Assembly: GCA_000004985.1 (NCBI GenBank)
Contig: GG738869.1
Strand: one strand, 5' to 3'
Source: Naegleria gruberi
Lineage: Eukaryota
DNA: 64,000 bases
Under the pieces are notes generated by a model. It was not told where the DNA came from and made no database searches. It worked only from the letters and a program-made list of their open reading frames with translations. Position numbers and translations under genes: made by a program. This document shows positions 13,237 through 64,000 of this stretch, one piece after another; position 1 is the first letter of the stretch; every line of letters begins with the position of its first letter.

Positions 13237-14739
13237 TTATAATACAATTTGTACAAATTCATTGATCAAGTGACTGTCATGCATTTTGTATCTTGTCATG
13301 GTATCATTTCCAATTCTTTCCAATTCAACTAAGCAATCATCTAAATCCTTCTTTGTGTGAGCACTAGAAATGCAGAATCTTACTCTGGCCAAAGCAGTTG
13401 GACAAGCAGGAGCACCAACAATAACAATGGCAATTCCTCTCTCGAGGCAAATTCTAGAAAATGCAATCAATTTTGTCAAGTGATAAATCATCATGACGAT
13501 AACAGGTGAATCTCTATCTGAAATAATTTCAAATCCAAGTTTTTTCAAAGAATCCCCAAAGTAATTGGTATTGAAACTCAATTGGTCTAATTTTTCCTTT
13601 CCAATACTTGTGTTATCTTCACCCATAATGCAAGTGAGAGCTGACAATGCCTGTTGGGCACAAGGAATTGATATTGAAGTACCATAAATCAATCCAAAGC
13701 AAGATTTTTTCAAATAATCAATGACCTCAGCATCTCCAGAAATGTATCCTCCCACAGAATTAAAACTCTTTGTAAAGGTTCCCATCAAGATGTCAATATC
13801 CTTTGGGTCAACATTTTGCTGTTCACAAACACCTCTTCCAGTTTTACCCAAAGCTCCACACGAATGAGCCTCATCCACATAGAGATGGAACTTGTATTGC
13901 TTCTTCAATTCAACTACTCTTTTCAAATTGACAATTTCACCTTCCATACTGTAAATTCCCTCAACAATGACAATAATCTTCTTCCATGGTTTTCTATTTC
14001 CTGGTCCTGGTTGACCATCAATAATGTTCTTTCTCAATAATTTCTCCAAATGATCCATATCATTGTGTCTGAAACGAAGAACTGTTGGAGTACCTTCTGA
14101 AGCTCTAGTTCCATTCACAATACTTGAATGGTTCAAAGAATCGGACAAGATGAGACAATCTCTAGTTGGAGCCAATAATGGAATAACTGTAGAATTGGTT
14201 GCAAATCCCATGGACACAACCATTGCACTTTCCTTTCCAATAAATCTAGCAACTCTCTTTTCCAATTCTCTATGAATTGGAGTATAACCATATTCAGAAT
14301 ATGCAGAACCAGAAGCAACACCATATTTATCAAAACTCTCCAAAACCTGATCAACTACATGTGAAGGACTTTCAGAAAATCCTAGATAATTATAACTAGC
14401 CATATTTAAACAACTTTTCAATTTACCATTCGTGTCAATATTTGCAACTCTTTCAGTGTTTGGATTTCTCATCATGACTTGAATATGTGAAGATGGTCTG
14501 CTTGCAATCGGTCTGTGGAAACAATCAGAACATTTCCCATAGATTCTTCTCACAAAGAAATCATCATCTACGAGGGGTTTCTTACTAGCTTCATCAGGAA
14601 ACCTTTCATAATTTGTTTTATCGATCGGACCAATGAAGAGAATATGAAACAAATCGCTGATCTTTCCCAATATAAATACAATTAGTAGATTTGTATGGGT
14701 TAGAAATAAAGTCAACGGGGAAGGATCACAATGCGTCAT
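13237..14739 (-). CDS. Serine palmitoyltransferase, LCB2/SPTLC2-type subunit. A PLP-dependent alpha-oxoamine synthase.
   Basis: MASYNYLGFS near the N-terminus. The PLP-lysine motif MGTFTKSFNSVGGYISG (GTFTKS) is the AONS/SPT/KBL family signature. The upstream DFFVRRIYGKCSDCFHRPIAS matches the eukaryotic LCB2 N-domain. Confidence 0.8.
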   Translation of the reverse strand: MTHCDPSPLTLFLTHTNLLIVFILGKISDLFHILFIGPIDKTNYERFPDEASKKPLVDDDFFVRRIYGKCSDCFHRPIASRPSSHIQVMMRNPNTERVANIDTNGKLKSCLNMASYNYLGFSESPSHVVDQVLESFDKYGVASGSAYSEYGYTPIHRELEKRVARFIGKESAMVVSMGFATNSTVIPLLAPTRDCLILSDSLNHSSIVNGTRASEGTPTVLRFRHNDMDHLEKLLRKNIIDGQPGPGNRKPWKKIIVIVEGIYSMEGEIVNLKRVVELKKQYKFHLYVDEAHSCGALGKTGRGVCEQQNVDPKDIDILMGTFTKSFNSVGGYISGDAEVIDYLKKSCFGLIYGTSISIPCAQQALSALTCIMGEDNTSIGKEKLDQLSFNTNYFGDSLKKLGFEIISDRDSPVIVMMIYHLTKLIAFSRICLERGIAIVIVGAPACPTALARVRFCISSAHTKKDLDDCLVELERIGNDTMTRYKMHDSHLINEFVQIVL

Positions 14740-23046: not shown

Positions 23047-24533
23047 TTATTGAGATTGTTTTACAGCTCTTACAGTTTGAGCTAATCTTTTCATCTCACT
23101 TAATTGATTAGAACATGATTTGATAATACTATTCTGTCTATCAAAAATTCCTCTCAAAGTCATATCACGAGCTGGTGGCAATGGTTGTGAATATTCGGTA
23201 ACAATTGTTGGTTGAGGCTCAAATGTATTGAAATGTTGAGAAAAGTAGGATGGTTCAGTGGTGATGGTTGGTTTATCATCCAATTCAATATCATTTGATT
23301 GTGGAATTGATTGTGACTCAAATGAAATTAAATCAACATTTGATTGGGCTTCACTTGGAGCTTGTGAAATGGCATCATCATTATCAATGACATCAAATTC
23401 TTCATCTTCAAAATTTACATCACCTTCCAATTTTCTCTTACTCAACATTAATTCATATTCACCCAAAAGTTTACTGTAAATTCCACCAATAACCATGGAA
23501 GGCAAAGCAACAATCACAATACCAGACAAGATGGTCATGATAGCAATAATTCTTCCCAAAACTAAGAGTTTGGTTCTTAATAAATGTTAAATTAATGAAT
23601 TAACATACCTGTAACTGGAGCCATGTCACCATAACCAACTGTAGCAATGGTAACAACGCTGTACCACATACAAATTAAAATATTTGAAAATGGTGAAGGT
23701 GTACCATCTGGTCTTAACCATTGTCCAGATTTGAGATCATATTTTCCACGTTCAGCATAATAAACAAGAGTACTACAAATAAGAGCACCCATAAATATTA
23801 AAACAGAGATTGATAAGAGCATATCCATAGATCTTCTCAATGAAACAATAAGCAATTGAAATTTAGCAGAATATCTTGTCAATTTGATAAGTTTTAAAAG
23901 TTTTAAAACTCTGAAAATTGTCAAAACTTGAAGATTGACATTTAACCAAGTACTGGCATCTGCCATATAAATTATTAAATCAAAGTAAAATGGAACGAAA
24001 CTAGCAATATCAATTAAATTGGCAGGAGCTTTAACAAAATGTCTAAAATCACCCCAAGTATTTACATAAGCAGCCATTCTTGCAAAATATTCAAGCATGA
24101 AACAAACTGATAAAAATCCAGTAATAAGCAGCCACATGATTTCGAATGGGAAAAAGAATGGAAAAGATCTCAAAATTAAACATAGGGTTTGAATAACAGT
24201 CATGAGTGACGTTATCACTGTAATGATCATGGCTACATATGATGATCTAGGATGTTCCAATAATAAATATAATTTTTGTTTCCATGTTCTTTCCTTATTA
24301 CTTTGTGGAATACTCTTGATAATATTAATAGTTCTTCTACTTCGGAATAGTCTTGAATTTTCAATTACTTCCAATGTTTTCTTTTTTTCCTTTTCCTCTA
24401 ACTTGAGTTTTGCTTTGATTTCTTTTAAAGTGGTTGGTGGTTGTTGTTCGATAGCTTCCTTTTCATGCTGTGATGATGAGGAAGGCGATGCGGGTGTTGC
24501 TGTTGTTGTAGGTGTTGGCGTTGTTGTACTCAT
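23047..24533 (-). CDS. Six-TM voltage-gated-type K+ channel without a T1 domain. Two exons: 23609..24533 and 23047..23561.
   Basis: S4 with basic residues every third position (LKLLKLIKLTRYSAKFQLLIVSLRRS). K+ selectivity filter TIATVGYGDM. A 47-nt GTATGT..AG intron (23562..23608) lies between APVTG and the S6 helix (VLGRIIAIMTILSGIVIVALPSMVIGGIY). Confidence 0.75.
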
Positions 24534-56515: not shown

Positions 56516-59500
56516 TTAAACATCTAAACTGAAAGACCACTGCAGTTTTGTTGTTGATCCATTAAAAGCAATCTCTTCTTCATTTCCTGATCTAAATAAT
56601 TCGAAAATTCTTTCGATAGTTGTACTTAATTTCATCACTTCTTGTTTGTTGTGGCAAAGTTTGATCTTTAACACATTGTCTGGTTGGATAGTCTCTAAAA
56701 TGTTGAAAGATAACTTTTCATTGATTGGAAATTGGCCAACTGTACAAGGCACTAAGCCAGATTTAGCTTTTTCATTATAAGTTCTTTCTTCTGATCCCTG
56801 TGAAAGAGAAACTTTGAAATTTACACAACCATCTCCATACGGACAATTGGTTAATGAAATAAAGTTAACAATCAATATACTATATGAAGATATTGAAGTT
56901 GCTTGAGGTGGTATTACGGTTTTGTTCTTAGATGGTGATGGTAAGCCACCAATGGATAACCTTCTTATTCTTGCTTTCAAAATTTCATTTTCTTTTATCA
57001 ACTCACTAGCATTAGAATACGTATCAGATGTGTCTAAACTATGATTCAAGTCGGAATTTGCTGGAGAAATTGGACTTGTTGGTGGTGTAAAGTTTGGTAT
57101 GGCTTTTCTCTTTGGAGTTGTTGACCCACCAACTGATCCATTTTGAGAACTATTCATGGTTGAATTAGCAAAAGCTTCTTGCATCAAGCCACCATAACTG
57201 GAAAGACTCTTTCTTCTGAGAGAATTCCATTTTCCTTCTTCTTGCGTTATTTCTCCTACCAAATCAAACTGAATAAAGCCATCTTCCAAGTATTCAATTA
57301 AATCCTCGTTAACTGTTCTTACACAGTATCTTCTATGGAAATTGAACAAAAGGTTTGTTCCTGTTTGCTTGGAAGTATGAATTGGTTTCTCAGTATAAAA
57401 CTTGAAACGAACATAATTGTCCTTGGATTGTGAGTCCAATTCCTTAACAGCTTTAATCTTGAGCAGGAAATGAAGAGATTGGCCCATCAAATCATCCGGA
57501 GTTTCAACAGGTAATGGTGTTTGTTTCATGGTTTCATCACCTGGAACCAATGGAACGATTGCTGCTAGCAAGTGGCCCCTTACCTCACCATCAACATCAA
57601 GAAGAGGAAGCAACTCTTCTTTTGCTGTTCTTCTGGCTAAATGCTTCAGTTCCATTCTGGCTGTTCCTACTACTTCGACAGAACTGCCATAGAAAGGATC
57701 TTGAACTTCTTCAGTCATAGAAGTGTTAAGATCATTTTGGACTGGTTCTCTAATGATGAGAACTTTTTCTCTCATCTTTACAAGTCTAGTTTCAAACTCC
57801 TCAACCGACCACATTGTTGTCTTCTTCCTTTCCTTATCAACTGCTTGTATACCCAGAAGAGGTTCAGAATTTTTAACCAGAATTTTCAAGTCATATCTTA
57901 TATTCTTATTGAAATCCTTTACAATATCATTTGCTTCCTTAATCATTGGCAAAAGCCTAACCAAATTTTCATCGATTCTGTTTCTCGAAATATTACCAGG
58001 AGGAGGCTTTACGACCTTTTCTTCTTTGTGGACAAGCTTGTTGTGAAGACCTTTAAGAACACCCCTAACAGTGTCTCTAAAACTTCTTCGTTTCTTCTTC
58101 TTTTTTTCATCCATTTCCTCAAGCTTTTGTTTATGTTCCTCTAACTCTTTGACTTGTCTTTCAATAATTTCTTGCTGTTTGTACTTTTCTTTTTCATATT
58201 CTTTCTCTATCTCCAATAGTTTTGCCTTCATTGTTTCTTCAATTTCTTTTTCTTTTTCTTCTACAGCATATTCAATAGCTCTCTTTTGTTCTTGAGATAA
58301 CTCTTCTTGAGCAAAAGCCCAATCGATATTTTCATCCACTTGTGAGCTTGTTTCTGTAAATCTGAAAACGTGATTATTACCTAAAATTATTCTGTCATTA
58401 CACTTCAGTTCTGTGTCCTTGGTTATCAATTTACCGTTTACATAAACAGTAGCAGAATTGATTGGAATGATTATTATATTCTCGGGAGTTCTGGAAACTA
58501 TACAATGTTGTGGTTTGATTTGAAGACCATTCAGAACAATATTATTAGACTTATCACGACCTAAGAATGTATCACCAATTTTAAAGAAATACACAAGCAT
58601 ACCACTCATCATTGGATCTTCATTCAAGTTGACCAAACTTGGGGCGTCAGTTGATTGAACAATATCTCCAATATCTGTGAACACAATACCAGCTTCTTCA
58701 AGAACTTTTCTTCTTGCCTTTTCAATTTCGTGTGTTCTTCGTTCCTTTTCTTTCTGAGTTGTTTGCAGCTGTTCTATAATTTGTTGACTTGAGGCAAGCT
58801 GTTCTTTCAGTTTAATTTTTTCATCGTCATCGACAACCTTATTTGAAGGTGTAAGAAGACATTTAAGTCTTGAAATTTCATCTCTCAGCTCTCGAATTAC
58901 TGTTGCATTTGGATCTTCGTTGATTTTTGCCTTATTTTTGATACTTTTTGCTCTGTTGGCATATCTGAGGGTGGAAAGAGTTTCTTGGTAATTATAATCG
59001 CTAGGTGAAAGTGTTGCAATCATTATCTTTTGGAAATTAGCTTGTCAACTTTTGTTGAATTACATACCGTTTTGCTATTTCCTCCCAAACTTTCTTTAAG
59101 TAACCAAGTTCTGTAACTCTATTAGTAAAGAGAATTCAACCTTCATACTTACAAAACACTGTTTCTGTAAGGAACAAAAACTTTCTTATTTGGATTTTCT
59201 GCTTTCTCTGACAATTTGTTGATTACATTACCTAGGGCTGTGAGAGAAACGTTAATAGATGATCCTTCCTTTAGTCTTTCGCCTGTTGCTCCTGTTTTAT
59301 CTGCTCTTTCAGAACCAGCTAAATCTATCAAGTTAATGATTGAAACTTTTTCAGAAAAGGCAGAAGTTCCATTGTCAACAATAGATTCAGTAGAAGAAGC
59401 GAGAATAATTTGGAAAATAGTGTGAGCTCTTGATGATGTATCATTCATATTTGTTTTGGCAATAGTTCTTAACCTATTACCTTCATCCATTAACCTCAAA

Positions 59501-60252
59501 ATGTCGTCCTCATTATGTACAATACAAGATTCCATTCCCTCAATATAAGGACCTGTTTGAGGATTTTCTCTAATCTTCAAACCAGCCTTATTATTCAAAG
59601 GATTTGTTGGGTTGAAAAGGTCTCTAACTTGTTCATTATAGATTTCAATCATTGAGGTTTCAACTCTATAATTTCTTGTAATTCCATCATTCTTATTTCC
59701 ATCTTCTCTAATTCTATGAAAGATCGCTTTACAAATTCTAGGAATCAACCCCATATGTTCTCCTTCTCCAACTCCCATCATTGTATACTATATAGTAAAA
59801 ATACAAATACTATTAAAATCCAAACAATCCTCAAATAGACACATACCGTTTTACCACTATCAACAGTTTGAATTCCTATTGTCAATCTAAAACTTACCTT
59901 CCTGTTTGACCATAAGCAAAAAGTGAAGTATTATATCCTTGGAAAGCATTTTCAATGATCCTCACACCAATCTCATCAAACACTTTTTCTTGTGGGGTGT
60001 GTCCCTCACTCTTTTCATCATGACTCCAAAATGAATAATCAAAGCTAAATGGTCTATCTTGTCCATGAGTATCTGGGTCTCTTATTATTGTTTGAGGACC
60101 CTCCATATTAATAATACATTGTGTTCCTCCTTTAATACGTTTTTCTCTTTCATTGAAAGGACGAACACGAACAGCAACCTTAGGAGATGATATTGTTATC
60201 CATCATTGTTCATACTTCTTCTAATACATACCAGCACCGAATCAGACGACAT
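56516..60252 (-). CDS. Kinesin-3 family motor (KIF1/Unc-104-like) with an FHA domain. Six exons: ~60231..60252, 59898..60178, 59847..59856 (a 10-nt micro-exon), 59153..59787, 59068..59110 and 56516..59026.
   Basis: MSSDSVL|[27 protein letters not shown]...SFDYSFW...FAYGQTG|S|GKT|[18 protein letters not shown]...SSRAHTIF...[10 protein letters not shown]...LGNVI...PYRNSVL|[14 protein letters not shown]|[30 protein letters not shown] domain: [36 protein letters not shown] long coiled-coil tail follows. Introns are 52, 41, 59, 42 and 41 nt, all with GTAAGT or GTATGT donors. Phases are consistent, giving a 3501-nt CDS. Confidence 0.8.
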
Positions 60253-60534
60253 TTTTTCGTTAGGAAATATAAGTTTGGCGCAAAGATAAGATTCTGGGAT
60301 TGTTGTACAACAGTCACCTAAAGCTTAGAATCAACCAACATCATCGTAATTCATGAAAGAAACTTACAACACAAAGTTGATGGTGATTGAAAGGGCCTTG
60401 GTCATTGAAATAAAAGCGATAAGGCATAACGTTCAAAAACATTGTTTTACCTCTGAGATAAAATAATTGAACAAGAAATCATAAAAACACCCGCCAAAAA
60501 TTTACGCATTTAACCTCTAAAATTAAAAAAAAAG

Positions 60535-63440: not shown

Positions 63441-64000
63441 ATGAACAGAATCTTGATCGCAACTTTTGCAATTTTGGCTCTCGTTATTAGTGCTCAAGCA
63501 TTTACTATTGGAGGAATTAAATTCAATGCTCCAAAGGATAACGAAGAAGTCTGTAAGTCCTTTGCCAATAGATATGAACCATTCGACTACTTCCTCCTCA
63601 GGTAGGTAAAATAATCATCATGATGAACTAATTCATTTACACAGTATTCAATGGCCAGGTACTGCTTGTGTCGGTAAGAAGCCAGGTGAATGCACTGTCC
63701 CAGATTTTGTCAATGATTTTACTCTCCATGGTAAGTATTTTCTATTTGATAATAGTAGAGAAATTTAAACTATTATTTAATGCATGCGATGAAAATTTAT
63801 GAATTTTTCAATCATCACGTCATCAATTATTATAACAATATATTATTATTATTATTATTAATAGGACTCTGGCCACAATACAACAATCCATCTACCTATC
63901 CAGAATGTTGTTGGAATATTGATTTTGATGCCAATGCCATTGCTCCAATTAGAGACCAAATGAACAAGTTGTGGCCATCTTTCTATCACTCCAATGAACA
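63441..64000 (+). CDS. Ribonuclease T2 family protein with a signal peptide. It is 3'-partial at the window edge. Exons: 63441..63601, 63645..63730 and 63865..>64000.
   Basis: The signal peptide is MNRILIATFAILALVISAQA. The CAS I active-site motif FTLHG|LWP spans intron 2 (GTAAGT...AATAG). Exon 2 reads SIQWPGTACVGKKPGECTVPDFVNDFTLH. The sequence continues ...QYNNPSTYPECCWNIDFD. An A-run precedes the ATG. Confidence 0.75.

Follow-up and report, generated by a model that had tools for sequence, protein, structure and literature searches.

A 10-nt exon in the kinesin-3 gene of Naegleria gruberi

A stretch of 64,000 nucleotides (nt) from contig GG738869.1 of the Naegleria gruberi assembly GCA_000004985.1, here called the window, carries on its minus strand a kinesin-3 gene in which the Walker A motif (P-loop) of the motor domain is assembled from three exons, the middle one being 10 nt long. 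The gene extends from position 60252 down to 56516 and consists of six exons, which after joining give an open frame of 3501 nt (1166 codons and the stop). Its introns measure 53, 41, 59, 42 and 41 nt. All five have the GT...AG borders and the GTAAGT- or GTATGT-type donors of U2-type introns, and the orthologous introns of related species show the same donor types. Gene structure, all features on the minus strand:

60232..60252, minus strand: exon 1 (coding part), 21 nt; ATG TCG TCT GAT TCG GTG CTG, i.e. MSSDSVL
60179..60231, minus strand: intron 1, 53 nt, GTATGT...CCTAAG, phase 0
59898..60178, minus strand: exon 2, 281 nt; 3' end GGT CAA ACA GGA AG, i.e. GQTG and the first 2 bases of a Ser codon
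59857..59897, minus strand: intron 2, 41 nt, GTAAGT...TTGATAG, phase 2 (within the Ser codon, AG/T)
59847..59856, minus strand: exon 3, the micro-exon TGGTAAAACG, 10 nt; completes Ser (AG+T) and adds GGT AAA ACG, i.e. Gly-Lys-Thr
59788..59846, minus strand: intron 3, 59 nt, GTATGT...TATATAG, phase 0
59153..59787, minus strand: exon 4, 635 nt; core of the motor, YTMMG to PYRNSV(L), with switch I (SSRAH) and switch II (DLAGSE)
59111..59152, minus strand: intron 4, 42 nt, GTAAGT...TTACAG, phase 2
59068..59110, minus strand: exon 5, 43 nt; begins with (L)
59027..59067, minus strand: intron 5, 41 nt, GTATGT...CCAAAAG, phase 0
56516..59026, minus strand: exon 6, 2511 nt with the stop; codes for the end of the motor domain, the neck coiled coil, Kinesin_assoc, the FHA domain and the C-terminal tail

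Exon 3 lies within the size range of micro-exons (internal exons of 15 nt or less) and is bordered by TTGATAG on its upstream and by GTATGT on its downstream side. In all kinesins GQTGSGKT forms the loop that binds the phosphates of ATP, and here the micro-exon supplies S-GKT to this motif. Removal of both introns leaves AG-TGGTAAAACG-TAT in the mRNA, which is translated into S-G-K-T-Y, and the spliced product at the P-loop reads FAYGQTGSGKTYTMMG. The 40-nt string over the junctions of exon 2, micro-exon and exon 4 is GGTCAAACAGGAAG TGGTAAAACG TATACAATGATGGGAG; exon 4 starts at 59787 with TATACAATGATGGGA, in the reading TAT ACA ATG ATG GGA. This assembly of the Walker A motif had been proposed in a preliminary description of the window, and the reconstruction of the minus strand agrees with every number and motif given there. 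The flanking introns of 41 and 59 nt, the two later introns of 41-42 nt and the total of 3501 nt in six exons are correct to the base.

By similarity searches the gene product is a member of the kinesin-3 family, as the preliminary description had supposed. The complete N-terminal motor domain (residues 11-359) is covered by the Pfam profile Kinesin (PF00225) over positions 1-327 of 327 with E = 4.6e-108, and Kinesin_assoc (PF16183, E = 1.2e-17) and, after the neck, an FHA domain (PF00498, E = 3.6e-11, residues 484-546) are found in addition. Walker A, switch I and the switch II motif DLAGSER are intact in the spliced product. Among solved structures human KIF1A (8utn, E = 9e-122), KIF13B and KIF14 match best, with far lower scores for kinesin-2, kinesin-1 and kinesin-5. 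The uninterrupted P-loop expected from an alignment with kinesin-3 motors was found: GQTGSGKTYTMMG aligns with GQTGAGKSYTMMG of KIF1A without a gap, and the alignment to the KIF13B structure is likewise ungapped. KIF13A and KIF13B are the best annotated homologues outside the Heterolobosea; the best full-length homologues come from Naegleria lovaniensis (72% identity) and Willaertia magna (59%). Exon 6 aligns colinearly, without inserts, with its N. lovaniensis counterpart (72% identity).

An exact-sequence look-up showed that the spliced product of 1166 amino acids is identical over all residues to the entry 'kinesin-3 [Naegleria gruberi]' (XP_002677049.1, EFC44305.1, UniProt D2VG82, D2VG82_NAEGR). 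The public model therefore already contains the 10-nt exon, and the gene model with its micro-exon has been known from GenBank/RefSeq since the genome annotation of 2010. Homology searches had suggested that the gene was missed by the reference annotation, which was ruled out by the exact look-up. The N. gruberi entry did not appear in these searches because XP_002677049.1 sits in a cluster at 90% identity whose representative, P0125, is a 210-amino-acid fragment from a metagenome; this open reading frame (ORF) corresponds to exon 4, which is called as a stand-alone ORF in metagenome contigs.

The expectation that such an exon would be missed by almost every gene predictor does not hold, as at least four public annotations (N. 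gruberi, N. lovaniensis, Naegleria fowleri and W. magna) contain it; prokaryote-style ORF callers on metagenome contigs alone break the gene at the micro-exon. The N. lovaniensis annotation was made by BRAKER1 with intron hints from RNA sequencing (RNA-seq) (PMC6125883). For N. gruberi a public RNA-seq dataset exists (PRJEB23822). None of the ten kinesin models corrected by hand (AKG0001-0010) in an RNA-seq-curated set of N. gruberi microtubule genes (10.1101/2024.01.08.573270) matches the kinesin-3 gene in length or position.

A P-loop micro-exon of this kind is hardly produced by chance. When the interval of 110 nt from the donor of intron 2 to the acceptor of intron 3 was shuffled, a site composed of AG, a 10-mer coding for S-G-K-T/S and GT arose in 36 of 2,000,000 shuffles, corresponding to a chance of 1.8e-5. 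The real micro-exon is the sole such site on both strands of the 64-kb window. Furthermore, an independent metagenome assembly of the same species (contigs L008/L009; 98.6% identity over 3.4 kb) is identical to the window throughout the micro-exon region. An assembly indel is excluded by this identity; the preliminary description had named a sequencing indel as a possible source of error. L008/L009 (ERR1078381, PRJEB11402) come from an environmental strain close to N. gruberi, which thus also carries the micro-exon.

The 12-mer AAAACGGTATGT, expected 0.01 times, occurs twice in the window, at 59841-59852 and at 59062-59073 (both on the minus strand and both within the kinesin-3 gene). Either copy spans a phase-0 junction of Lys-Thr with an intron, one between the micro-exon and intron 3, the other between exon 5 and intron 5. 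The identity of the two copies is not shared by N. lovaniensis, and the duplication probably arose by chance from the codons and the donor type.

Conservation in Naegleria and Willaertia

The deposited orthologous proteins of N. lovaniensis (XP_044551633.1), N. fowleri (XP_044566399.1) and W. magna (ABK040_005494) were mapped onto their own genomes by an exact spliced search. None of the three proteins can be obtained without a 10-nt exon 3 at this site, flanked by introns of phases 2 and 0, and S-GKT as well as the position of intron 1 are common to these genes and N. gruberi. An environmental Naegleria-like contig, L010 (ERZ27315067), which represents a second species with 74% protein identity, also carries the 10-nt exon. 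The micro-exons of the five taxa are as follows:

N. gruberi (window): TGGTAAAACG
L010: CGGTAAAACT
N. lovaniensis: TGGAAAGACA
N. fowleri: TGGAAAGACA
W. magna: CGGAAAAACG

Four distinct 10-mers are thus found, always 10 nt long, and they differ solely at synonymous third positions (positions 1, 4, 7 and 10 of the exon). Intron 2 has the same position and phase in the five taxa with a length of 35-56 nt, and intron 3 the same position with 40-59 nt. The pairwise identity of the flanking introns is 0.57-0.60 compared with 0.73-0.75 for the exons. This combination of synonymous change only and diverged introns is the pattern that purifying selection leaves on a coding exon.

Other parts of the gene are less stable. 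The orthologous genes consist of eight exons in N. lovaniensis, eight in N. fowleri and six in W. magna. Intron 4 is present in N. lovaniensis and N. fowleri, which also share with N. gruberi the 43-nt exon 5 and a head-to-head neighbour, CCDC39; neither of the latter two features was seen in W. magna. Two additional phase-0 introns in the C-terminal part of the N. lovaniensis and N. fowleri genes are missing from N. gruberi, and in W. magna introns 4 and 5 are absent and two different introns occur in the C-terminal part. While these introns turn over, all five taxa have kept the two introns that flank the micro-exon.

Outside this group the P-loop is organised differently. In Acrasis kona and in several heterolobosean-like metagenome contigs it is uninterrupted. 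A single 30-nt phase-1 intron within the Gly of SGK was found in the kinesin-3 of metagenome contig L013, and a single phase-0 intron after GAGK in that of contig L006; in KIF13A of Lingula the last Gly of GQTG is split by a phase-1 intron. None of these three genes has an intron at either of the two Naegleria P-loop positions or an intron pair that would make a micro-exon. Since the outside lineages have other P-loop introns or none, the pair is specific to the lineage of Naegleria and Willaertia. The arrangement is older than the split of the two genera and has been kept since.

The head-to-head neighbour of the kinesin-3 gene codes for an axonemal CCDC39. Their start codons are 282 nt apart (60253-60534), and the arrangement is kept in N. 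lovaniensis (L001) and N. fowleri (L007). A shared bidirectional promoter and a role of the kinesin related to the flagellum may be behind it. Upstream of the kinesin start codon an intron of 50 nt in the 5' untranslated region is possible (60318-60367, minus strand, GTAAGT...GCTTTAG); the N. lovaniensis gene, read for about 100 nt ahead of its start codon, showed no counterpart.

Splicing of the intron pair and competing explanations

If the micro-exon is skipped, translation ends prematurely after GQTGSIQ, and retention of intron 2 leads to a stop directly after GQTGR. With intron 3 retained, a stop follows 22 codons after GKT. Because skipping and retention give premature stops, the micro-exon must be included in every productive transcript, and it is predicted from the reading frame to be constitutive and essential for any functional product.

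The flanking introns themselves are not exceptional, although the preliminary description had regarded their shortness as unusual and as telling about the splicing machinery of the host. A crude scan of the window for GTAAGT or GTATGT...AG pairs joining long open frames gave 22 candidate introns (median 53 nt), two of which (160 and 152 nt) are in-frame alternative paths in the kinesin-3 gene and no real introns. In CCDC39, the adjacent gene, the three introns measure 49, 38 and 38 nt, and the median intron of N. lovaniensis has a length of 80 bp (PMC6125883). Short introns are therefore ordinary for Naegleria. CTAAT- or ACTAT-like motifs 8-20 nt upstream of several acceptors of the kinesin-3 gene are candidate branch points, picked by eye.

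With introns of about 40-60 nt and long exons the splice sites would be paired across each intron (intron definition). Under intron definition the size of an exon would not be used for its recognition, and a tiny exon should pose no problem. Introns 2 and 3 are probably removed successively and not simultaneously, because a 3' and a 5' splice site 10 nt apart leave no room for two spliceosomes at once. For the micro-exons of plants it has been argued that the flanking introns are removed consecutively, usually the downstream intron first (PMC8831610).

Taken together, we assign a probability of about 0.95 to the reading that the locus is the annotated kinesin-3 gene of N. gruberi, with five short U2-type introns and a constitutive 10-nt exon that completes the Walker A motif. 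Some points weigh against it. Support at the RNA level is indirect and consists of annotations partly informed by RNA-seq and of conservation. The order of intron removal and intron definition are inferred from general knowledge and from plants, not from Naegleria. In addition, an in-frame alternative 3' splice site lies 50 nt within exon 4, and a minor isoform without P-loop may be made from it.

This alternative site leads to a competing gene model. According to the preliminary description only one path keeps the frame of the motor domain. The path through the micro-exon is indeed in frame, but the frame is also kept by a single 160-nt intron from the donor at 59897 to the AG at 59738, which drops the micro-exon together with the first 50 nt of exon 4 and yields a protein of 1146 amino acids lacking 20 codons including SGKT. 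Such an intron would have canonical GT...AG borders, and the AG at 59738 is found in all five taxa. However, this AG is part of an Arg codon in the conserved stretch IPRIC, so that its conservation is explained by coding, and the 20 codons lost are conserved as coding sequence in every orthologue. The product would be devoid of the catalytic Lys-Thr of Walker A and would be predicted to be unable to hydrolyse ATP. By exact look-up the 160-nt-intron product is absent from the public protein collection, as is an ORF of exon 6 only, whereas the product with the micro-exon is present. Furthermore, a single intron would leave the synonymous-only change of the 10-mer unexplained, and we consider it very improbable as the regular splicing of this gene. 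A second in-frame path, an interval of 152 nt that starts from donor 59152 (59001-59152), leaves out exon 5 together with the first 26 nt of exon 6; it was rejected, as it deletes a conserved segment of the motor. A naive predictor could choose either the 160-nt or the 152-nt path.

An artefact, that is an indel from sequencing or assembly, or a decaying pseudogene in which a 10-mer resembles the P-loop by chance, has nothing more in its favour than the a priori rarity of 10-nt exons. It would have to be reconciled with the identical sequence in the independent metagenome assembly, with the same architecture in four other genomes, with a frame of 3501 nt that is unbroken and shares 72% identity with the N. 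lovaniensis orthologue over its whole length, and with a chance probability of about 2e-5. This explanation is barely conceivable.

A different proposal accepts the micro-exon and would explain its retention, since before Naegleria and Willaertia parted, by a regulatory task. Slow or ordered removal of the intron pair, with retention and nonsense-mediated decay, would act as a gate which tunes the amount of kinesin-3, for instance during the switch from amoeba to flagellate. In line with such a gate are the retention of both flanking introns in five taxa while other introns come and go, the early stop in every mis-spliced form and the head-to-head position with the axonemal CCDC39 in three species. 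On the other hand, the sequence has no sign of regulation; the donors are of consensus strength and the introns contain no conserved sequence. RNA structure that could bring the splice sites together is not in excess over shuffled controls in four species (z +0.1 to +1.35), and retention in five taxa of a single family is also expected from neutral persistence. A regulatory gate is thus improbable, and the same low expectation applies to the more specific idea that it acts together with the divergently transcribed flagellar CCDC39 in the amoeba-to-flagellate transition.

Neighbouring features and relation to known micro-exons

The G+C content of the window is about 33% and matches the published value (PMC8296547). 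A second candidate micro-exon, suggested by a close pair of GTATGT motifs at 23671 and 23608, was rejected, as it proved to belong to the coding sequence of a K+ channel gene that has a single ordinary intron. Further features of the window:

23480-23800, minus strand: K+ channel gene with the selectivity filter TVGYGD and one intron of 47 nt; another GTATGT, 63 nt upstream of the true donor, is coding (Cys-Met-Trp) and mimics a tandem-donor micro-exon
13237-14739, minus strand: serine palmitoyltransferase ORF, 100% identical to the N. gruberi protein, which marks the window as N. gruberi
63443-64000, plus strand: gene for an RNase T2-like secreted protein, cut off by the window's end; two or more GTA-type donors, intron-like by eye, one of the introns long and AT-rich with (TTA)n near 63840-63860

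Constitutive ultra-short micro-exons of 15 nt or less are known from plants (Yu et al. 2022, PMC8831610), and the human gene MPC1 contains a constitutive exon of 4 bp, a length which is not a multiple of three (PMC9929638). The Naegleria exon resembles them in being an internal coding exon of a few nucleotides in a conserved domain, constitutive since skipping shifts the frame, and conserved over a long time. The difference lies in the flanking introns, which in plants and animals are usually much longer and need additional intronic signals; in Naegleria they have about 40-60 nt, which is normal for the genome. A micro-exon in the P-loop of a kinesin is not mentioned in the plant study (PMC8831610).

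The neuronal micro-exons of animals form another group. They have 3-27 nt, depend on SRRM4 or PRP-40, are alternative, mostly frame-preserving and tissue-regulated, and are flanked by long introns. The Naegleria exon is similar to them solely in its small size and in the problem of exon definition. It differs in its length of 10 nt, so that skipping shifts the frame, in its obligatory use, in its unicellular host and in its short introns.

The exon thus falls into the well-described class of constitutive ultra-short coding micro-exons, within a protein family that is itself well known, and no new kind of element, new mechanism or unusual spliceosome is revealed by it. In the searchable literature no discussion of micro-exons in Naegleria was found; the sole paper containing both words is a study of diplonemid mitochondrial genomes, which was judged unrelated by its title and abstract. 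The conservation of the micro-exon across species may therefore be unreported so far, a small increment to the known gene model. The reading of the raw sequence rebuilt a difficult eukaryotic gene model including a 10-nt exon, in agreement with the public protein residue for residue.

For the biology of Naegleria and its relatives the kinesin-3 gene offers a tidy example of a constitutive and frame-critical micro-exon in an essential catalytic motif, conserved across a family of protists with short introns. Gene predictors could be tested on it, or ordered splicing under intron definition be studied with it. In a weaker version of the gate proposal the gene would be a natural test of the minimum exon size with which an intron-definition spliceosome can cope.

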